From positions 21,126 through 85,125 of IMG/VR virus record IMGVR_UViG_3300020183_000041: DNA of 64,000 nucleotides. One strand, 5' to 3'. A model generated the notes under the pieces. That model was not told the origin of the DNA and did no database searches. It saw only the letters and a program-made list of their open reading frames with translations. Below, one piece after another: positions 1-20,364 of the stretch. The position numbers were made by a program, and so were the translations under genes. This stretch comes from a virus. The stretch's first letter is position 1, and each line of letters opens with the position of its first letter.

Positions 1-87
1 CTGCGCCCCCCGCAGGGCGGGGGAACTTCAACCCATTCGGTACGATCAGTCGAGATGATTGAGCATATATTCTCTCACCATACAAAC

Positions 88-128
88 ACTGGTGTGCAAG
101 GCAGTCTTCAGCGAACTGAAACACCAGC
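88..128 (+). repeat. Cassette hairpin element, copy 1
   Basis: ACTGGTGTGCAAGGCAGTC-TTCA-GCGAACTGAAACACCAGC; arms CTGGTGT/ACACCAG, TTCA loop. Confidence 0.85.
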
Positions 129-153
129 GATTAAGGGGTCACCTAATGTTCTC

Positions 154-186
154 TTTTAGTGTATGTCTAAACCCACATGGTATAGT
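154..186 (+). promoter_or_regulatory. Cassette 1 promoter (leaderless)
   Basis: TTTTA-GTGTAT(159-164)-16 nt-TATAGT(181-186), ATG 7 nt later at 194. Confidence 0.8.
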
Positions 187-193
187 GTTTGAC

Positions 194-451
194 ATGGGGA
201 ACAACCTGGTGACCGTGAATGCGGAACCGAACCTATACCCCATCAGGCCAATCCTGATGGAGGCTCTCGCAAGGGATACCAGCACAGGCTGGACCTTGCT
301 AGACGGGGTAATCGTCATGGAGGAAAGGAATACTCTCCAAGACGAATACGTTCGTCTGGTCGCCGACGAAAAGGCGACAGGGCAAACCCACGCAGGCAAA
401 AAGCGAGACATTGCTCGCCGCCTGCGGACAATCGCCAGACTTCTGGCGTGA
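194..451 (+). CDS. Cassette 1 protein, family A, N-terminal MGNNLVTVNAEP tag
   Basis: Start reassigned from 59 to the ATG at the predicted TSS; paralog of 656..973 (EAL..GW..T..D.I..EER..RR..TI.R). Confidence 0.8.
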   Translation: MGNNLVTVNAEPNLYPIRPILMEALARDTSTGWTLLDGVIVMEERNTLQDEYVRLVADEKATGQTHAGKKRDIARRLRTIARLLA

Positions 452-455
452 AATC

Positions 456-488
456 GGGCGGGGTCGAAAGACCCCGCCCTTTTTCTTT
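456..488 (+). terminator. Intrinsic terminator
   Basis: GGGCGGGGTC-GAAA-GACCCCGCCC followed by T-tract. Confidence 0.9.
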
Positions 489-549
489 GTCTTTGGATGG
501 CGTTCATGCATAGGACACGATTCTTTGAATATATATTTCTCATTACATC

Positions 550-590
550 GCTGGCGTGCAGAGGGTGCTTCAGCGCACTCAAGCGCCAGC
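550..590 (+). repeat. Cassette hairpin element, copy 2
   Basis: GCTGGCGTGCAGAGGGTGC-TTCA-GCGCACTCAAGCGCCAGC. Confidence 0.9.
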
Positions 591-615
591 CGTACTGGAC
601 TCGTTCCATTTTCAC

Positions 616-648
616 TTTTAGTGCATAGTTGGACTCACTTACTATAGT
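616..648 (+). promoter_or_regulatory. Cassette 2 promoter (leaderless)
   Basis: GTGCAT(621-626)-16-TATAGT(643-648), ATG at 656. Confidence 0.8.
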
Positions 649-655
649 ACTGGTT

Positions 656-973
656 ATGGGAAACAACCTGGTGACCGTGAATGCGGAGCCGAAAGAACAC
701 AAAAGCATCAATGAGGCACTACTGGCGGCGGTTGAGCGTAGCGGTTGGGTCAAGCCCGACCGCCCGATGTCTCGCCTTCCAAAAGGCGGGGCAACCGTGG
801 GCGACATCATTACCCTGAATGAGGAGCGCCTAGAAGCGCTTTGGAAACTGGGCAACCTCCGAACGGAGGCGGCACGGGGCGCAAAGAATGCCACTCTTCA
901 GGCGAAACTGGTCAGGAGAATAAACACGATTACCCGAATAATCAATGCGTTTGACGACGCACAACGCCGATAG
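656..973 (+). CDS. Cassette 2 protein, family A, N-terminal MGNNLVTVNAEP tag
   Basis: ATG 7 nt after the -10; first 12 codons nearly identical to cassette 1. Confidence 0.8.
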   Translation: MGNNLVTVNAEPKEHKSINEALLAAVERSGWVKPDRPMSRLPKGGATVGDIITLNEERLEALWKLGNLRTEAARGAKNATLQAKLVRRINTITRIINAFDDAQRR

Positions 974-988
974 TCTCCCCAGACGGAT

Positions 989-1022
989 AACCCCCTCGCC
1001 CTGTTGCTCGGGCGAGGGGGTT
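989..1022 (+). terminator. GC-rich hairpin without U-tract after cassette 2
   Basis: AACCCCCTCGCCC-TGTTGCTC-GGGCGAGGGGGTT; its downstream flank resembles window bases 19-51. Confidence 0.55.
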
Positions 1023-1087
1023 CCGCCAACCCGTCCCGTGCGGTGCAATCAAAAAATTAAATGAATATTCTCTTCACTCACTATTCG

Positions 1088-1128
1088 GCTGGTGTGCGAG
1101 AGGTGCTTCAGTTCTCTTAAACACCAGC
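1088..1128 (+). repeat. Cassette hairpin element, copy 3
   Basis: GCTGGTGTGCGAGAGGTGC-TTCA-GTTCTCTTAAACACCAGC. Confidence 0.9.
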
Positions 1129-1153
1129 GTTGTTTATAATGGTCTATTTTCTC

Positions 1154-1186
1154 TTTTAGTGCATAACCTAGGTCACTTGTTACTAT
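1154..1186 (+). promoter_or_regulatory. Cassette 3 promoter (30-nt leader)
   Basis: GTGCAT(1159-1164)-16-TACTAT(1181-1186); GAAAGG SD before ATG 1224. Confidence 0.75.
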
Positions 1187-1223
1187 TAGTCCTGTCAGTA
1201 ATAACCCCAACCGAAAGGCGATT

Positions 1224-1589
1224 ATGTTTGGAGAAAATGCAAAGAATGAGCAAGTCGGATTAGTGATGGAAATGTCAGTAGGTGTTACGGAGTATGCCGA
1301 CAAATTGGCTGCACAATCGACACCGCTTGCACGGCACGCAGCGTTGCAATTACACAATTCCATGCGGTCGGTAGCGGTTCTCACCGTACTCAACGCAGTG
1401 AGGCAGGAACCGATTACGAAAGACTACCTTTATCGCATTGTGTTCATTTTCCAAGACATTCTCAAGAATGTCTTGGAATACGAAAATGCAGGTCTGATTG
1501 TCGAAGTCGACAACCTTGACAACGAAGATGTGAAGATGAGCGACTTTCTTTCGGCACTGATGTACGAATTCACCGAATTGATGGATTGA
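1224..1589 (+). CDS. Cassette 3 hypothetical protein (acidic C-terminus, no tag)
   Basis: 121 aa ORF with SD, bounded by promoter and terminator. Confidence 0.8.
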   Translation: MFGENAKNEQVGLVMEMSVGVTEYADKLAAQSTPLARHAALQLHNSMRSVAVLTVLNAVRQEPITKDYLYRIVFIFQDILKNVLEYENAGLIVEVDNLDNEDVKMSDFLSALMYEFTELMD

Positions 1590-1621
1590 AAAATGGGGGG
1601 CTTCGGCCCCCCATTTTTTTT
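1590..1621 (+). terminator. Intrinsic terminator
   Basis: ATGGGGGG-CTTCGG-CCCCCCAT plus T-tract. Confidence 0.9.
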
Positions 1622-1689
1622 GTCTTGATGAATGGTGTTCATCAACGGCATGGCTTTCTTGAGTATGTATTCTTTCAATACCTGGATGT

Positions 1690-1729
1690 GCTGGTGTGCG
1701 AGGAAGCTTCAGCTGCCTTAAACACCAGC
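1690..1729 (+). repeat. Cassette hairpin element, copy 4
   Basis: GCTGGTGTGCGAGGAAGC-TTCA-GCTGCCTTAAACACCAGC. Confidence 0.9.
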
Positions 1730-1754
1730 GCTGTTAGGGGGTAGGTGTTCTTAT

Positions 1755-1787
1755 TTTTAGTGAATAGCCAAGGTCACTTGTTATAGT
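1755..1787 (+). promoter_or_regulatory. Cassette 4 promoter (leaderless)
   Basis: GTGAAT(1760-1765)-16-TATAGT(1782-1787), ATG at 1795. Confidence 0.8.
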
Positions 1788-1794
1788 GTTTCAC

Positions 1795-2118
1795 ATGAGC
1801 GACAAGCCCAAGGTGACTGCTAAGGCAGAACCGAACCGCAAGGTGAACCTTGCGGAACTGCAAGGAAAGATTGCCAAGAAAGGCAAGCCCCCGTACCGTG
1901 ACCCTGCGTTGGCGCAAGACCTGCTGACTCTTGGTGATGGCGAGGCAATCTTGTGGGTTCAGGCAACCGTGAACGTCACGGGAACCGACCCCAAGGCAAT
2001 CAACGCCGAAAAGATGAAGTGGCGCCAACGTGCTATTTCGGTTGCCGAGGGTGTGAACCTCAAGGTTCAGATCAACTGGTCAACCAATGGCGAGATGTAC
2101 ATCTCGCTCAAGAAGTAA
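1795..2118 (+). CDS. Cassette 4 small basic protein, family B (putative DNA-binding)
   Basis: MSDKPKVTAKAEPNRKVNL..KKGKPPY..RQRAISVA..INWSTNGEM; paralog of cassettes 5 and 6. Confidence 0.85.
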   Translation: MSDKPKVTAKAEPNRKVNLAELQGKIAKKGKPPYRDPALAQDLLTLGDGEAILWVQATVNVTGTDPKAINAEKMKWRQRAISVAEGVNLKVQINWSTNGEMYISLKK

Positions 2119-2132
2119 AAGAAAGGAAAAAG

Positions 2133-2164
2133 AAAAGGGAACCCGAAAGGGTTCCCTTTTTTTT
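2133..2164 (+). terminator. Intrinsic terminator
   Basis: GGGAACCC-GAAA-GGGTTCCC plus T8, A-tract upstream; same stem at 3410-3442. Confidence 0.9.
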
Positions 2165-2174
2165 GCCCAAAGTC

Positions 2175-2214
2175 GCTGGCGTTCTGGTCGCGCTAAAGCG
2201 CTTTGAACGCCAGC
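2175..2214 (-). repeat. Inverted-orientation hairpin element
   Basis: GCTGGCGTTCTGGTCGCGC-TAAA-GCGCTTTGAACGCCAGC; loop reads TTTA on the minus strand. Confidence 0.85.
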
Positions 2215-2300
2215 GCTGTTGGACAAACCTTTGGTCTCTCTTTATTACACAATTACTAATTCCTTGTAATAATTTAATATTACTCACAATATGTAATCGG

Positions 2301-2341
2301 GCTGGCGTGCGAGCGTGTCTTCAGCGCGCTTAAACGCCAGC
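2301..2341 (+). repeat. Cassette hairpin element, copy 5
   Basis: GCTGGCGTGCGAGCGTGTC-TTCA-GCGCGCTTAAACGCCAGC. Confidence 0.9.
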
Positions 2342-2366
2342 GGAATCGTACTCATCTATTCTTCAT

Positions 2367-2399
2367 TTTTAGTGCATTTCCAAACCCGCTGGGTATAGT
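2367..2399 (+). promoter_or_regulatory. Cassette 5 promoter (leaderless)
   Basis: GTGCAT(2372-2377)-16-TATAGT(2394-2399), GTG at 2407. Confidence 0.8.
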
Positions 2400-2406
2400 T
2401 CTAGTC

Positions 2407-2733
2407 GTGGCAACACAACAGCCGACCGCTAAGGCGGAGGCAAACCGTAAGGTGAACCTGAAAGACCTGCAAGGCAGTTTGTCTAAGAAGGGCAAACCTC
2501 CCTATCAGGACAAGGCACTAGCGGCAGACATTCTGTCGCTGGACCCAAACGACGCTAACGACGCATTCGTTTGGTCAAAGGCGGCGGTCGTTCTGACGGG
2601 AGACCCAAAGAAGGACAACGCCAACAAAATGCTGTGGAGACAGCGCGCCATTTCGGTTGCAAAGGCTACGGGTATCGTAATCCGTATTCAATGGACCAAT
2701 AATGGAGAAATGGTTATTTCACGTAAGGGGTGA
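2407..2733 (+). CDS. Cassette 5 small basic protein, family B
   Basis: PTAKAEANRKVNLKDLQG..KKGKPPY..WRQRAISVA..IQWTNNGEM. Confidence 0.85.
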   Translation: MATQQPTAKAEANRKVNLKDLQGSLSKKGKPPYQDKALAADILSLDPNDANDAFVWSKAAVVLTGDPKKDNANKMLWRQRAISVAKATGIVIRIQWTNNGEMVISRKG

Positions 2734-2747
2734 AATAATCAAAAAAG

Positions 2748-2778
2748 AAAGGACCGCCTTCGGGCGGTCCTTTTTTTT
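2748..2778 (+). terminator. Intrinsic terminator
   Basis: GGACCGCC-TTCG-GGCGGTCC plus T8. Confidence 0.9.
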
Positions 2779-2788
2779 GCCCAAAGTT

Positions 2789-2828
2789 GCTGGTGTTCTG
2801 GTCGCGCTAAAGCGCTTTGAACACCAGT
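2789..2828 (-). repeat. Inverted-orientation hairpin element
   Basis: GCTGGTGTTCTGGTCGCGC-TAAA-GCGCTTTGAACACCAGT; compensatory C-G to T-A change relative to 2175-2214. Confidence 0.85.
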
Positions 2829-2914
2829 TTGTTTGTCTTCAAGTTGGGGTATGGTTTATTACAAATTTACAATTTACATGTAATAAATTACATGATGTTT
2901 CAAATCCTAATTCG

Positions 2915-2954
2915 ATTGGCGTGCATGGAGGCTTCAGCTCCATTGTGCGCCAAC
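2915..2954 (+). repeat. Cassette hairpin element, copy 6
   Basis: ATTGGCGTGCATGGAGGC-TTCA-GCTCCATTGTGCGCCAAC. Confidence 0.85.
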
Positions 2955-2979
2955 CAAATTGGACTCTAATGGTTATTAT

Positions 2980-3012
2980 TTTTAGTGCATATCTGGGGTC
3001 ACTTGTTAGAGT
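2980..3012 (+). promoter_or_regulatory. Cassette 6 promoter (leaderless)
   Basis: GTGCAT(2985-2990)-16-TAGAGT(3007-3012), GTG at 3020. Confidence 0.8.
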
Positions 3013-3019
3013 AGTACCC

Positions 3020-3394
3020 GTGAGCACAAACAAGGTGACCGCTAATGCGGAACCAAAGAATACTCATGGCAATACCCCGAATGTCCGAGTCAACCTTTCC
3101 CAAATGGCTGGCAAACTTTCCCGCAAAGGAAAGCCTGCATACAAGGATGAGGCATTGGCAAAGGATATTCTGTCGCTAGACCCGACCGACCCCAATGATG
3201 CTTTCACCTGGGGAAAAGCAAAGGTTTCCCTTGTGGATGCCAACGGCGAGTCCCGTGACGAAGCCCAAATCAATAAGGAAAAAATGAAGCACCGCCAGCG
3301 AGCATTTTCGGTCGCAAAGCAGTTGCAAATCGAAATCCGTGTGATTTGGATGGTCGATGGTCAAATGGTCATCGCACTCAAAAACGACAAGTAA
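3020..3394 (+). CDS. Cassette 6 small basic protein, family B
   Basis: Start reassigned from 2702; MSTNKVTANAEP..RVNLSQMAGKLSRKGKPAY..RQRAFSVA..IWMVDGQM. Confidence 0.85.
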   Translation: MSTNKVTANAEPKNTHGNTPNVRVNLSQMAGKLSRKGKPAYKDEALAKDILSLDPTDPNDAFTWGKAKVSLVDANGESRDEAQINKEKMKHRQRAFSVAKQLQIEIRVIWMVDGQMVIALKNDK

Positions 3395-3409
3395 TTAGAA
3401 AGGAAAAAG

Positions 3410-3442
3410 AAAAGGGAACCCGAAAGGGTTCCCTTTTTTTTT
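3410..3442 (+). terminator. Intrinsic terminator
   Basis: GGGAACCC-GAAA-GGGTTCCC plus T9. Confidence 0.9.
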
Positions 3443-3452
3443 GTCTAAAGTC

Positions 3453-3492
3453 GTTGGCGTGCGGTCGGCGCTAAAGCGCCTTGCACGCCAAT
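3453..3492 (-). repeat. Inverted-orientation hairpin element
   Basis: GTTGGCGTGCGGTCGGCGC-TAAA-GCGCCTTGCACGCCAAT. Confidence 0.8.
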
Positions 3493-3579
3493 TAGTTTTA
3501 GAATTATCTTTTGCAAAACTTTAATATTTATTCAAATTACAATTAATAATGTAAAGACTAATTAAGTTTTTCAATATAC

Positions 3580-3623
3580 GATGGTGTTCAAACGATAACT
3601 TTATTTATCGTTTGAACACCATT
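3580..3623 (+). repeat. Divergent hairpin element of a decayed seventh cassette
   Basis: ATGGTGTTCAAACGATAA-CTTTAT-TTATCGTTTGAACACCAT; TTTAG follows at the conserved distance (G at 3654). Confidence 0.65.
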
Positions 3624-4193
3624 TGGATTTGAATTATTATTATCTATACTTTAGCACACTGTCAAATCAGATTCACTCTTTGTTACACAAAAGTTACAAT
3701 TCTAATTAGATTCACTATTAGGCCGCCGATACCCTTGGGATAGACCTGTGATAACTATGATCTTTCCCCCCGCTTTCTACACTACAATTTTGCCGGTCTT
3801 TAGGCAACAGTTTCACCATAAGAATACCCCTAGAGAGTATTCACCATTATAAACCTCAAATTACAGCGGGGTAAGTCTGTAACTATCTATACCAGAGTCT
3901 GGAGTAGAATAAATACAATTAAATTCATGATTAGGTCCATAATTAGATTCGTAATTAAATTTGTAGTCGCCAATTATTTACCTTAACGCAAAATTCGGCC
4001 TTCACAATATATGAGCATCAAAAATATATTAAAATTCGGGTTAGATATGTCTATATTCTCCTCTAGAGATAGAGAGTAGATAGAAAGCAAACAAATGTTC
4101 GCTTTTTTGATAGAAAATGATAGCATTTTGCTATATTTTTACTATAAATATTATAATTTTCTTTATTTTTATGCTGTTTTTAGGCACAAAAAA

Positions 4194-4231
4194 AAGGCTT
4201 AAGAATAAGTTTTACCTTACTCTTAAGCCTT
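4194..4231. terminator. Hairpin ending the leftward gene run
   Basis: AAGGCTTAAGAATAAG-TTTTAC-CTTACTCTTAAGCCTT with an A-run on the left (U-tract on the minus strand). Confidence 0.6.
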
Positions 4232-4307
4232 AAATTTGGGCACGCACACCCATATAAATATAATAAATATATTTATAGTTGTGTACGCTTCACTTGCTTT
4301 TGATTAG

Positions 4308-4346
4308 TTATCCACAGGTTTTGCTAGTCATTCACAGTCATCCACA
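4308..4346 (+). promoter_or_regulatory. DnaA-box-like cluster
   Basis: Perfect TTATCCACA at 4308-4316, TCATTCACA at 4328-4336, TCATCCACA at 4338-4346, beside an AT-only tract at 4252-4277. Confidence 0.4.
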
Positions 4347-7684: not shown

Positions 7685-7997
7685 AAAGCAAACCCCAGGC
7701 TGGGTCAGTATTTTTTGTAAGATTATTAAAATCTTTTACAAGTTTATCGCCAAGACCCATATTTGAAAGATTTTTCAAATACTCAGTCAAACCTGACTTT
7801 TCAATCTTCTCAGTTGTTGAGACATCGAAATGCTTTAAAATTCCACTCACAGGATTCTTTACATAAAGAGCAACACAATTCTGAATAGGAATGATTAAAC
7901 TAAATGAGCCATTAATTGCACTTTGAATTAATTGTTCCGATTCTGCTTTTTCATCTTTTTTTGCAACGAATTTCTTATTTGCTGGTTTAGTTGCCAT
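7626..7997 (-). CDS. Hypothetical protein
   Basis: ORF with GAGG SD. Confidence 0.7.
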   Translation of the reverse strand: MATKPANKKFVAKKDEKAESEQLIQSAINGSFSLIIPIQNCVALYVKNPVSGILKHFDVSTTEKIEKSGLTEYLKNLSNMGLGDKLVKDFNNLTKNTDPAWGLLFEILVQKGCFSGEPVQTVA

Positions 7998-19674: not shown

Positions 19675-20364
19675 TTAATCAAAAAGTGAAAGTTGATTTT
19701 TATTTGCTATGATTATTTTAATGTTTGTAAGTTCTTTTTGATTTGTCCATTCATCCCATTCCTCTATTGATTCAAGATTCCACAATTCTAAGTGATAAAC
19801 GGCGGTTAAGATTTCATCATCACTTGGATAAACATCGGCATCCACATCAACACAAATTCCTAGTTCATCCGACAAATATCTGTAGACTTGAGAAGACCAA
19901 GATTCAATGTTCGTATCAATCATTGATTTAATTGAGAAATGAAGATCTTCTAATGCATTAATTGCAGCATCATATGATCTTTCACTATATTCTCCATCAT
20001 CCCATACTGGGTAATCCAGTAGTTCGTCTTTACAAGACATAGCTTTTATGAAAGCTTTTGTAATATTGTCTTCTGTTATTTGTTTGTTTTCTTTTAGAAC
20101 ACGAACACACAACCTATCGACATGACCTACAGCCCAATGATTATAAGTTTCAATTCTAAAATCATCAGGGAATTCTGCCATTAATTCTCTAGACATTAAA
20201 TCAAAGTTCATTTCATCTAGAATGCTAGAGTCTCTGTTTTTGTCAATACCACAAAAACCCCAGGTTACAAACATATCATTTGAACCCCAGTAACCGAAGT
20301 CCTCTGGTTTCTCAATAGCATCATTTGCACACCGTAAAAGGTTTTCAGAATAGGACCAATTCAT
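19675..20364 (-). CDS. Conserved phage hypothetical protein
   Basis: RDSSILD..NF..HWAVGHVD..DYPVWD. Confidence 0.75.
   Translation of the reverse strand: MNWSYSENLLRCANDAIEKPEDFGYWGSNDMFVTWGFCGIDKNRDSSILDEMNFDLMSRELMAEFPDDFRIETYNHWAVGHVDRLCVRVLKENKQITEDNITKAFIKAMSCKDELLDYPVWDDGEYSERSYDAAINALEDLHFSIKSMIDTNIESWSSQVYRYLSDELGICVDVDADVYPSDDEILTAVYHLELWNLESIEEWDEWTNQKELTNIKIIIANKNQLSLFD

Follow-up and report, generated by a model that had tools for sequence, protein, structure and literature searches.

The 64-kb stretch of DNA analysed here (the window) opens with the right-hand six-tenths (units 5-10) of an array of ten cassettes, all on the + strand, located at 19.3-24.7 kb of an 85-kb viral contig. 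The array is probably a hyperplastic set of autonomous one-gene expression cassettes driven by predicted actinobacterial leaderless promoters, and it resembles the PeSL cassettes of T4-type phages in the gain, loss and replacement of whole units. It forms an island of high GC in the AT-rich genome of a lake phage that encodes WhiB and infects Actinobacteria. In this model the -10 would be read by the host RNA polymerase with its primary sigma, and the -35-position box, uniform per genome and different among close relatives, by a factor that the phage specifies or modifies. The near-identical modules would serve as the homology patches through which whole cassettes are exchanged, and transcripts would start at the ATG or GTG itself (leaderless mRNA) or with a short stem-loop leader carrying a Shine-Dalgarno.

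Layout and genomic context of the array

The initial annotation described six tandem units in the window, and all six were found where it placed them, with the ends of the hairpin (T1) one base too far out. They are only part of the array, since four units lie to the left of the window (loops at genome 19319, 19850, 20383 and 20741), where a further cassette had been suspected from bases 19-51. The order within a unit is an optional Box A, the T1 hairpin, a 31-32 nt spacer, the -35-position box, 16 nt, TANNNT, about 7 nt, a start codon or leader, an ORF and a terminator. Each unit is self-contained, as had been proposed: it brings a promoter-like site, an ORF and a terminator of its own. The features are, in window coordinates:

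1-23, +, 3' part of the unit 4 terminator hairpin (rest of unit 4 and units 1-3 at genome 19.3-21.1 kb)
59-83, +, Box A, unit 5 (TTGAGCATATATTCTC...)
89-127, +, T1 hairpin, unit 5 (outer stem CTGGTGT/ACACCAG, loop CTTCAG)
154-186, +, promoter-like site, unit 5 (TTTTAGTGTAT, 16 nt, TATAGT)
194-451, +, unit 5 ORF, 85 aa, family E; ATG start 7 nt past the -10 and no Shine-Dalgarno; leaderless by geometry
456-487, +, intrinsic terminator, unit 5
525-546, +, Box A, unit 6
551-589, +, T1 hairpin, unit 6
616-648, +, promoter-like site, unit 6 (TTTTAGTGCAT, 16 nt, TATAGT)
656-973, +, unit 6 ORF, 105 aa, family E, paralogue of unit 5; leaderless by geometry
991-1020, +, GC-rich hairpin ending unit 6, without a T run
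1061-1084, +, Box A, unit 7
1089-1127, +, T1 hairpin, unit 7
1154-1186, +, promoter-like site, unit 7 (TTTTAGTGCAT, 16 nt, TACTAT)
1194-1223, +, predicted 30-nt leader of unit 7, read from the sequence (GTCAGTAA...GAAAGG Shine-Dalgarno)
1224-1589, +, unit 7 ORF, 121 aa, orphan; ATG at 1224
1588-1627, +, intrinsic terminator, unit 7
1659-1682, +, Box A, unit 8
1691-1728, +, T1 hairpin, unit 8
1755-1787, +, promoter-like site, unit 8 (TTTTAGTGAAT, 16 nt, TATAGT)
1795-2118, +, unit 8 ORF, 107 aa, family A; leaderless by geometry
2133-2168, +, two-way terminator, unit 8
2176-2213, unstranded, T2 hairpin after unit 8, near-perfect palindrome, loop CTAAAG
2243-2272, unstranded, AT-rich ATTACA...TGTAAT palindrome replacing Box A, unit 9
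2302-2340, +, T1 hairpin, unit 9
2367-2399, +, promoter-like site, unit 9 (TTTTAGTGCAT, 16 nt, TATAGT)
2407-2733, +, unit 9 ORF, 108 aa, GTG start, family A; leaderless by geometry
2748-2781, +, two-way terminator, unit 9
2790-2827, unstranded, T2 hairpin after unit 9
2857-2888, unstranded, AT-rich palindrome replacing Box A, unit 10
2916-2953, +, T1 hairpin, unit 10
2980-3012, +, promoter-like site, unit 10 (TTTTAGTGCAT, 16 nt, TAGAGT)
3020-3394, +, unit 10 ORF, 124 aa, GTG start, family A; leaderless by geometry
3410-3446, +, two-way terminator, unit 10
3454-3491, unstranded, T2 hairpin, closing element of the array
3581-3622, unstranded, perfect 18-bp inverted repeat, arms with the TGGTGTTC half-site, as in T2

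A T2 hairpin stands behind every family-A cassette of this array. Box A resembles the -35-position box of related phages, and its distance to T1 varies from 26 to 36 nt (counted by eye).

The boxes of the window, GTG(C/T/A)AT, lie at 159, 621, 1159, 1760, 2372 and 2985. In five units an ATG (194, 656, 1795) or GTG (2407, 3020) stands 7 nt past TANNNT without a Shine-Dalgarno, an arrangement in actinobacterial style that makes these units leaderless by geometry. The remaining units have GAAAGG or GGAGA ahead of the ATG, within a short leader that opens with a stem-loop. The claim that the start codon always follows TANNNT by 7 nt is thus correct for five units of the window and fails for unit 7, with its leader. 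Transcripts are predicted to start about 7 nt past TANNNT, at 194, 656, 1194, 1795, 2407 and 3020; promoters and leaderless starts alike are predicted from geometry alone. The pattern GTGNAT-N16-TANNNT occurs ten times in the window (six times in array units, four times scattered) against 2.78 expected, a count reached by none of 100 shuffles, and neither T1 nor the TTTTAGTGNAT box occurs outside the array in the 85-kb contig. The distance from T1 to the box, said to be constant, is identical in nine of the ten units and one base longer in unit 1.

As already noticed in the initial annotation, the array lies on the strand opposite to that of the rest of the window and is richer in GC (49% vs 35%). 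The proposed location at a genome terminus or close to it was not borne out: each of the three viral records has the array in its interior, at 19-25 kb of 85 kb, at 54-58 kb of 100 kb (a record that is 96% complete) and at 50-54 kb of 61 kb. Nor is it an assembly chimera, since independent contigs from other runs span L001 6262-11274 and 12537-13994, that is, both array junctions, and since it is present in 24 lake-water runs. Two WhiB genes of the phage score above the Pfam cut-off, and this family matched solely Corynebacterium among 14 control genomes. A 3051-aa ORF matches tape-measure proteins; such a very long tape-measure gene is found in long-tailed phages. Together with the two WhiB genes, it identifies the host as an actinobacterium. 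The closest relatives of the DnaE-type polymerase are those of Streptomyces phages (38% identity). We found no description in print of similar arrays in actinophage genomes.

Related arrays and the -35-position box

A covariance model of T1 was built from the ten hairpins of the array. In keeping with the profile scan that had been suggested, within this phage it matched only the array (window 85-3627 at E<=1; genome 19,298-24,083 at E<=0.001), and related arrays were found at 2 viral and 17 metagenome loci, which reduce to about 11 different arrays and form three clades. All of them keep the geometry and are richer in GC than their own flanks wherever flanks are covered. Nine arrays yielded 46 cassettes, 44 of them with an ORF, which fall into 17 BLASTP families.

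The proposal that the cargo is swappable agrees with what was seen in five close relatives, whose flanks are 84-94% identical and whose cassette sets differ by whole cassettes. Families C and A alone occur in all five; B is present in four, D in three, and six families in one each. The three indel junctions examined (L127 7228-7282, 9077-9112 and 9183-9274) all lie in a repeated module or terminator, at different sites (spacer and box; terminator; T1 and promoter). These three junctions suggest PeSL-type recombination, the repeats leaving the exact crossover points unresolvable, and PeSL cassettes, one of the analogues originally named, are the appropriate one.

In this phage the box is GTGCAT in eight of ten units, and GTGTAT and GTGAAT in the other two. 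It is GTGCGT in all seven units of L123. In L119, L120, L127 and L128, with flanks 84-90% identical to those of L123, every counted unit has ATACAT or ATACAC. None resembles TTGACA. Such a difference between lineages suggests that a factor reads the box, probably one that is specified or modified by the phage. A need for such a factor would speak against expression that is strictly immediate-early. No candidate protein reading the box was found: sigma region 2 was not detected, and a 208-aa ORF gave a sub-threshold region-4-like match and no Pfam family. With the contig 82% complete, the missing part could hold a relevant gene.

The T1 hairpin

Each unit has one T1, a covarying hairpin of 38-41 nt. 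All ten of the array fold better than their own shuffles (z -2.1 to -6.6). Across 35 sequences 95.9% of cells pair, compared with 86.2% in shuffles, and 42 cells changed on both sides against 11.4 expected, values that none of 500 shuffles reached; the copies are related by descent, and these figures, like those on strand, overstate independence. When the partner was shifted by 1-3 columns as a control, 30-50% of cells paired. The + strand gives the better fold in 46 of 52 unique hairpins, with 103 G.U pairs on + and 20 on - (Wilcoxon p = 9e-9), again among copies that share descent. Purine transitions swap U-A with U.G and A-U with G.U, as in column pairs 11-47 (UA 21, UG 14) and 15-42 (GU 16, AU 15). 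T1 thus appears to be selected for pairing within one strand, that with the polarity of the coding strand, which points to RNA or single-stranded DNA.

The placement of T1 points the other way. In 40 unique hairpins with a recognisable promoter, its end lies 32 nt from the box in 21, 33 in 12, 28 in four (an artefact of the chosen stem boundaries) and at other distances in three, and 38 of the 40 have 16 nt between box and -10. Thirteen T1-to-start modules from four genomes align with only 1-nt indels, whereas the upstream terminator lies anywhere between about 20 and 90 nt away from T1. This placement points to a role at the DNA level, and we infer that T1 belongs to the promoter module and not to the upstream terminator. 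Sequence is conserved in the outer stem, the 2x2 internal loop and the loop, and T1 is the probable binding site of a specific factor.

One possible role, which we hold tentatively, is that of an RNA element on read-through transcripts, either an attenuator or insulator ahead of the next promoter or a site for binding or processing by an RNA-binding protein. Pairing kept on the + strand only, with its interchange of Watson-Crick and G.U pairs, favours this role, as does unit 6, whose closing hairpin has no T run, so that transcripts could plausibly run on into the T1 of unit 7. Attenuation or insulation is also the role assigned to the PeSL stem-loop, and passages of PMC2839356 report that PeSL stem-loops attenuate transcription. 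However, T1 is not followed by a T run and canonical terminators already stand upstream; T1 keeps its distance to the promoter in three clades but not to the terminator before it, which a plain terminator would not need; and the conservation in sequence fits it poorly. No larger RNA fold joining T1 to the start region was found, and no Rfam family matched T1.

Slightly less likely is an upstream promoter element acting as DNA, with a regulator that would bind the TGGYGT/ACRCCA arms, or a hairpin extruded from them and centred near -86, and control the promoter at a fixed distance. The regulator could be an activator or repressor made by the phage, or else a protein specific for the structure; T2 and the 3581-3622 repeat would be further sites for that protein. 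The offset of 32-33 nt is kept in 33 of 40 modules though the spacer sequence differs among clades, and two units of the third clade, counted by eye, likewise have 32. The first unit has a T1 although no cassette precedes it; the same half-site recurs in T2 and the perfect repeat; and T1 and box are about 53 bp apart centre to centre, roughly five helical turns (arithmetic from the coordinates). A duplex operator, on the other hand, needs neither inner-stem covariation nor one-strand pairing, cruciform extrusion is disfavoured by internal loops and wobble pairs, and no candidate binding protein was found.

The integron analogy of the initial annotation fared badly. That T1 is a strand-specific single-stranded recombination site (attC-like or IS200/IS605-hairpin-like) for cassette excision and insertion is highly improbable, even if the array looks the part, with single-ORF units between hairpins that keep their outer stems, vary and covary in the centre and pair on one strand, and even if close relatives differ by whole cassettes. 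A tyrosine recombinase was found in none of three records, one of them 96% complete (the controls matched in 14/14 genomes), and a Y1 transposase in neither of the two records searched. The three junctions lie at different places, every cassette has its own promoter-like site, and the T1 alignment holds no GTTRRRY-type core.

Scarcely credible is a phage N4-type hairpin promoter for a phage-encoded or virion-borne RNA polymerase, the TANNNT geometry being incidental: a sequence-specific hairpin favouring one strand does sit at a fixed place ahead of each small gene, and the contig is incomplete, but N4 hairpins have 5-7 bp stems and 3-nt loops on the template strand adjoining the start, whereas T1 favours the coding strand and ends 66 nt ahead of the start codon, the 3051-aa ORF gives tape-measure and not virion polymerase matches, no phage RNA polymerase was detected (PF00940 was unmatched, a weak test in that the control also matched nowhere), and host-type promoters predict both what five units show, an ATG or GTG 7 nt past TANNNT, and what the rest show, this box ahead of a leader with a Shine-Dalgarno.

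The cargo genes

The cargo of each unit is one small orphan ORF. None of the 19 cargo proteins scanned reaches the Pfam cut-off, and one matches a PHROG weakly (E 0.0036). By analogy only, the cargo may act in host takeover or anti-defence and be expressed early. For family A, 35 database proteins were found, those of the window included. The family-E ORFs each contain a small stem, covarying in unit 5 (inside 205-231) and inside 667-693 in unit 6.

The cassette array and its setting

The array stands at the left edge of the window, in a single viral contig of 85,125 bp that is classed as linear by IMG/VR and rated as 82% complete by CheckV. The six units described by the initial annotation were all recovered in place by a check of the sequence, and its hint of a further cassette to the left was borne out: four more units, with CTTCAG-loop hairpins at genome positions 19319, 19850, 20383, and 20741, precede the window and bring the total to ten (units 1 to 4 outside, units 5 to 10 inside). 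A covarying hairpin (T1) lies upstream of the promoter-like site of each unit, with a hexamer (the box) at the -35 position, and the whole module from hairpin to start is compact, at about 110 bp.

Hairpin, promoter and start features of units 5 to 10
89-127, 551-589, 1089-1127, 1691-1728, 2302-2340 and 2916-2953, + strand: T1 hairpins, from sequence and folding
159, 621, 1159, 1760, 2372 and 2985, + strand: first base of GTG(C/T/A)AT, followed by 16 nt, TANNNT and 7 nt
194, 656 and 1795, + strand: ATG starts of units 5, 6 and 8, without Shine-Dalgarno
2407 and 3020, + strand: GTG starts of units 9 and 10, without Shine-Dalgarno
1224, + strand: ATG of unit 7, preceded by a 30-nt leader with GAAAGG

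The pattern GTGNAT-N16-TANNNT has 10 matches in the window against 2.78 expected, a count reached in 0 of 100 shuffles, and six of the ten are array units. Over the full contig there are nine copies of the TTTTAGTGNAT box, every one within the array; unit 2 carries TTTTCGTGCAT instead. As the initial annotation had it, the array is GC-richer than its surroundings (49% GC against 35% in the rest of the window) and lies on the + strand, most other coding in the window being on the - strand.

An assembly chimera, which had been named as an outcome that would undo this picture, was checked and is not what was found. The array is contained in 24 lake-water metagenome runs, none of which is recorded as RNA, and 21 of these contain half or more of its sampled words. 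Contigs of four runs besides the likely source span positions 6262-11274 of L001 (genome 12,001-26,000), from the AT-rich left flank into units 1 to 8, and L001 12537-13994, from the array end into the right flank. These contigs, which bridge the junctions of flank and array, are interrupted only at repeated segments made of a terminator and a second class of hairpin (T2, loop CTAAAG). A 1129-aa ORF is a DnaE-type polymerase closest to those of Streptomyces phages (38% identity), and two WhiB genes score above the Pfam cut-off, a family detected only in Corynebacterium among 14 control genomes. Taken with the lake-water runs and the bridging contigs, this establishes that the GC-rich island is real DNA of a lake actinophage. 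T7-type RNA polymerase (PF00940) was not found, in a weak test whose control matched nowhere and whose contig is 82% complete. The 3051-aa ORF at the contig end, from which an N4-like phage had first been suspected, matches tape-measure PHROGs, and that suspicion was rejected.

The island in an AT-rich genome is kept in the relatives for which flanks are available. One conjecture is that it might let the first-expressed genes evade Lsr2-type silencing of AT-rich DNA. Ahead of the array, a + strand block (L001 2685-7215; genome 14.7-19.2 kb) holds four tRNA genes (Thr, Ile, Ser, and Asn), encodes a proteasome-subunit-like protein, and includes one ORF that matches the PHROGs for both endonuclease V and 2OG-Fe(II) oxygenase. 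Behind it, an AT-rich stretch of roughly 700 bp (3630-4330) separates the array from the point at which the minus-strand genes end. This stretch has no ORF longer than 47 aa, four copies of a TAATTAGATTCACTATTA-like repeat, and several promoter-like sites; at the equivalent position, relatives carry GGTAAGGGA...TTCAAATTATGG repeats. It may serve as an origin or an operator field, or be a terminus.

Two units deserve a separate mention. Unit 1 closes with about 26 consecutive C and then a stretch of G (L001 7727-7752; genome about 19,727-19,752), at which the contigs of other runs break; 7720-7766 was flagged as a place where reads appear to be cut. Unit 3 (L001 8366-8680; genome 20,366-20,680) has a complete hairpin-promoter scaffold, yet no ORF of at least 35 aa, and a strong RNA fold (-108.6 kcal/mol, z -4.95) was computed for the 205 nt downstream of its predicted start. 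An ORF-less cassette is also present in the array of L123, a related metagenome locus, and both may be non-coding RNA cassettes.

The T1 hairpin and the promoter-like site behind it

All ten T1 copies fold better than their own shuffles (z -2.1 to -6.6), with compensatory changes in 5 of the 12 consensus pairs. The initial annotation had proposed scanning with a hairpin profile; a covariance model of the ten copies matched the contig only within the array and found one array per related record. Across nine loci, 35 copies were aligned to the model: the share of paired cells is 95.9%, against 86.2% in shuffles, and both sides have changed in 42 cells against 11.4 expected, each value being reached in 0 of 500 shuffles; when the partner was slid by 1-3 columns, 30-50% of cells paired. 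Sequence is conserved in the outer stem (YKGGNGT/ACNCCMR), in a 2x2 internal loop, and in the loop (YTNAG), and the inner stem is variable and covarying. In the variable pairs U-A is exchanged with U.G, or A-U with G.U, which on the opposite strand makes A.C mismatches. The + strand folds better in 46 of the 52 unique copies and carries 103 G.U pairs against 20 on the - strand (Wilcoxon p = 9e-9); as the copies are akin by descent, these strand statistics and the pairing statistics overstate independence, the direction of the effect still being clear. T1 pairing is maintained on the coding strand only. No Rfam family matches T1, the four tRNAs alone exceeding the gathering score in L001 4000-14000, and no larger RNA fold was found that joins T1 to the start region.

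Pairing on one strand points to a role of T1 as RNA, or possibly as single-stranded DNA, and it is this that favors the reading of T1 as an RNA insulator, which we regard as possible and hold tentatively. T1 itself has no T run, and the canonical terminators are separate and upstream of it.

The position of T1 speaks for a different kind of role. A recognizable downstream promoter is present in 40 unique T1 copies of the window phage and its relatives, and the box lies at an offset of 32 from the T1 end in 21 of them, of 33 in 12, and of another value in three; the offset of 28 in the remaining four is an artefact of the stem boundaries chosen. Box and -10 are separated by 16 nt in 38 of the 40 modules. 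In a third clade (metagenome locus L135, two units read by eye) the offset is also 32, despite quite different hairpin and spacer sequences, and an alignment of 13 modules, drawn from four genomes and running from T1 up to the start codon, needs single-base indels only. The distance from the upstream terminator to T1 is variable (about 20 to 90 nt), and even the first units of the arrays have a T1. T1 is accordingly part of the downstream promoter module. Its fixed distance to that promoter points to a role at the DNA level and favors an operator or activator site, a reading that we find slightly less probable than the RNA insulator, to be set against the coding-strand pairing.

The box differs between lineages. 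In the window phage it is GTGCAT in eight units, GTGTAT in one, and GTGAAT in one; in L123 it is GTGCGT in 7 of 7; and in L119 and L120 (viral loci) and L127 and L128 (metagenome loci) it is ATACAT or ATACAC in all counted units, with flanks 84-90% identical to those of L123. Boxes are thus uniform inside one genome and different between genomes, and none is like TTGACA; a sigma-70 scan detected none of the six window units. This may reflect co-evolution with a recognition factor specified by the phage or homogenization of the modules through gene conversion. A putative recognition factor is suggested by the box being lineage-specific and by the rigid geometry of the hairpin. No sigma region 2 was found in the phage, the one match to sigma region 4 is below threshold and in an ORF without a Pfam family, and no gene that varies between L123 and L119 in step with the box could be singled out.

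A TANNNT about 7 nt before an ATG or GTG without Shine-Dalgarno is present in units 5, 6, 8, 9, and 10 and in many units of the relatives. We infer that the host polymerase would initiate about 7 nt past TANNNT, so that half of the units would give leaderless messages and the others short structured leaders. The box would be read by the putative factor, and the cassette genes would be early accessory genes. That T1 is a new promoter-coupled, strand-specific folded element of coding-strand polarity, at an exact distance from the lineage's box and recognized by a phage-specified factor that steers the host polymerase to private leaderless promoters, seems unlikely to us. If true, freshwater actinophages would have a promoter system that depends on a hairpin, has no relation to the one in N4, and doubles as a cassette-exchange joint.

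An optional element upstream of T1, Box A, was also noted.

59-83, 525-546, 1061-1084 and 1659-1682: Box A (TTGArTATrTATTCTC...)

It resembles the -35-position box plus upstream T-rich element of related phages (TTGAATACATATTCT) and is missing from several L120 units. On reading the sequence, Box A was rejected as a promoter, there being no -10 at a fixed distance and the distance to T1 being variable. It may be a second binding site or a remnant of module duplication.

Cassette turnover among related phages

The cargo of units 8 to 10 forms one family, family A, for which 35 proteins match in the database at E<=0.001, a count that includes those of the window itself. Several of the database proteins are annotated with N-terminal extensions that are translated hairpin and promoter, the first sign that the scaffold is conserved elsewhere. 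A profile of three family A sequences found no relative in viral and metagenome contigs. With 36 sequences, the profile found two viral loci (L119 and L120) and 17 metagenome loci, which come to about 11 distinct arrays in three clades once duplicates are removed, all with T1 copies; it found none in genome contigs. A blastn comparison of positions 1-3700 with 50,697 phage records gave no match, and hence none to a cultured phage. A promoter-pattern scan of viral contigs gave at most single matches per contig, regarded as chance, and two more pattern scans brought no contigs beyond those already found. The L119 and L120 arrays follow the same tRNA-Asn and 2OG-oxygenase neighborhood and have a GC of 0.43-0.49, against 0.32-0.37 in their flanks.

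In nine arrays, 46 cassettes were listed by a hairpin finder that overlooked a few copies detected by the covariance model; the 44 with an ORF are grouped by BLASTP into 17 families.

Order of cassettes in related arrays (letters are cargo families)
L119: B D C A A A
L120: J K L (one missed) C A A
L123: B M D C (no ORF) N A A
L127: B D C A A
L128: B C O A A

The comparison of cargo between relatives proposed in the initial annotation thus shows content that differs among five phages with flanks 84-94% identical. Family A is the sole family common to the window phage and these five close relatives. T2 comes after the terminator of every family A cassette in the window, L119, L120, L123, L127, and L128 arrays.

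2176-2213, 2790-2827 and 3454-3491: T2 hairpins, near-perfect palindromes with loop CTAAAG
3581-3622: perfect 18-bp inverted repeat with the TGGTGTTC half-site of T2, beyond the array

Cassettes turn over at the modules. The three junctions examined all fall inside repeated segments, each in a different part of the module.

L127 7228-7282: spacer and box, matching two places in L128
L127 9077-9112: terminator, flanking the O cassette of L128
L127 9183-9274: T1 and promoter, flanking the additional L119 cassette

Because the junctions lie in repeats and at differing module positions, they speak for turnover by homologous exchange and not for exchange at one fixed site. The same spread of positions makes it highly improbable that T1 is a recombination site; tyrosine recombinase (PF00589) was found in none of three records, with controls positive in 14 of 14 genomes, and Y1 transposase was not found.

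In integrons, named as an analogue in the initial annotation, the cassettes lack promoters, and an IntI-type tyrosine recombinase joins them at one set position within attC. The array shares with them tandem one-ORF units, strand-biased hairpins in between, conserved ends, and variable centers. It differs in having its own promoter-like site and terminator in each unit, no visible attC core motifs, and junctions that are not fixed, and with the PF00589 result the analogy does not hold.

None of 19 cargo proteins scored above the Pfam cut-off, and the weak PHROG match of one (E 0.0036) was dismissed. The AlphaFold model of family A (pLDDT 83.9) has no PDB fold match at E<=0.001, and the protein atlas gave only unnamed viral clusters with scores below 0.9. 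In the model, a compact helix-and-strand domain is predicted after a low-confidence N-terminal arm, in which the three paralogues (1795-3394) have a common K(K/R)GKP(P/A)Y motif. The pool of orphan cargo offers candidates for host takeover or counter-defence.

Comparison with known promoter and repeat systems

Phage N4 has a giant virion RNA polymerase that reads a short template-strand hairpin directly upstream of the start. That T1 is such a hairpin promoter is the least probable of the readings, since the 3051-aa ORF is a tape-measure match and T1 is long (38-41 nt), is favored on the coding strand, and ends 66 nt ahead of the start codon. In T4 middle promoters, sigma is appropriated and a MotA box stands in place of the -35. 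The array likewise has a normal -10 and a phage-specific box at the -35 position, whereas its box differs between sister phages and its upstream hairpin has no T4 counterpart; no MotA- or AsiA-like protein was identified in the phage.

The closest parallel raised by the initial annotation was with the PeSL (promoter-early stem-loop) cassettes. Many copies of a promoter and stem-loop composite precede small orphan genes in hyperplastic regions of T4-type myoviruses, and close relatives vary by insertions, deletions, and replacements with junctions inside the motifs (PMC2839356, PMC4122927). G-T pairs in the stems are highlighted, and the stem-loop is a G/C-tract terminator in five different positions relative to the promoter (PMC2839356). 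PeSL cassettes also give rise to mini-circles when adjacent motifs recombine; the contigs of other runs aligned to the array showed no such joints. The array has the same repeated intergenic promoter and stem-loop, small orphan genes, and variable region (ten units here, arrays in 19 related loci), and junctions between close relatives lie in the motifs in 3 of 3 cases. The analogy thus holds for motif-borne cassette turnover; it fails for the consensus -35 and for a terminator stem-loop at variable positions. Here the host is actinobacterial, with a long tape-measure gene in the phage; TANNNT is kept as the -10, and the sigma-70 -35 consensus is replaced by GTGCAT, GTGCGT, or ATACAT per lineage; half of the genes are leaderless by geometry; T1 is conserved in sequence and architecture, distinct from the canonical terminator, and fixed at 32-33 nt ahead of the box; and the whole array is a GC-rich island. 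If this reading holds, gene shuffling at repeated regulatory joints extends beyond the T4-like phages of Gram-negatives, and its new setting would be uncultured phages of the abundant lake Actinobacteria.

Among actinophages, the Cluster K mycobacteriophages carry SAS, a 13-bp consensus (GGGATAGGAGCCC) immediately upstream of start codons and scattered over the genome; about half of the copies have an adjacent 17-bp imperfect inverted repeat with a variable spacer (ESAS), and the consensus varies by lineage (PMC3203893). The likeness is that of an oriented, start-linked actinophage repeat with an upstream inverted repeat and a lineage-specific consensus. Unlike the array, SAS occupies the ribosome-binding position with an unrelated sequence, and is described there without a cassette array, terminator-promoter unit, or leaderless geometry. 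Reading by eye, we found the SAS motif as quoted in PMC3203893 upstream of no window start. Literature searches returned no description of such arrays in actinophages.

In leaderless units of Actinobacteria, the transcript begins at A/GTG itself, and a -10 TANNNT precedes it by about 7 nt. Five of the ten units have this TANNNT, 7 nt, and ATG or GTG without Shine-Dalgarno, and the WhiB genes make the host phylum fit the style. The difference is in ten near-identical copies with an extra scaffold of hairpin, spacer, and box; leaderless is meant here by geometry only. If the reading holds, the cassettes of lake actinophages would combine leaderless promoters with an additional conserved hairpin; the compact module is a ready test object for actinobacterial transcription and leaderless translation.

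The first codons of all five leaderless ORFs contain a small stem, CCGY...GCGG, covarying with CTGC...GCAG.

205-231, 667-693, 1809-1835, 2418-2444 and 3031-3057: small start-codon-proximal stem, within the leaderless ORFs

In relatives the same nucleotides, with the loop one base shorter, are read in another frame (DRKAEP against VTAKAEP in the window phage), and a nucleic-acid element is therefore a likelier explanation of the common N-terminal "tag" than a peptide signal.
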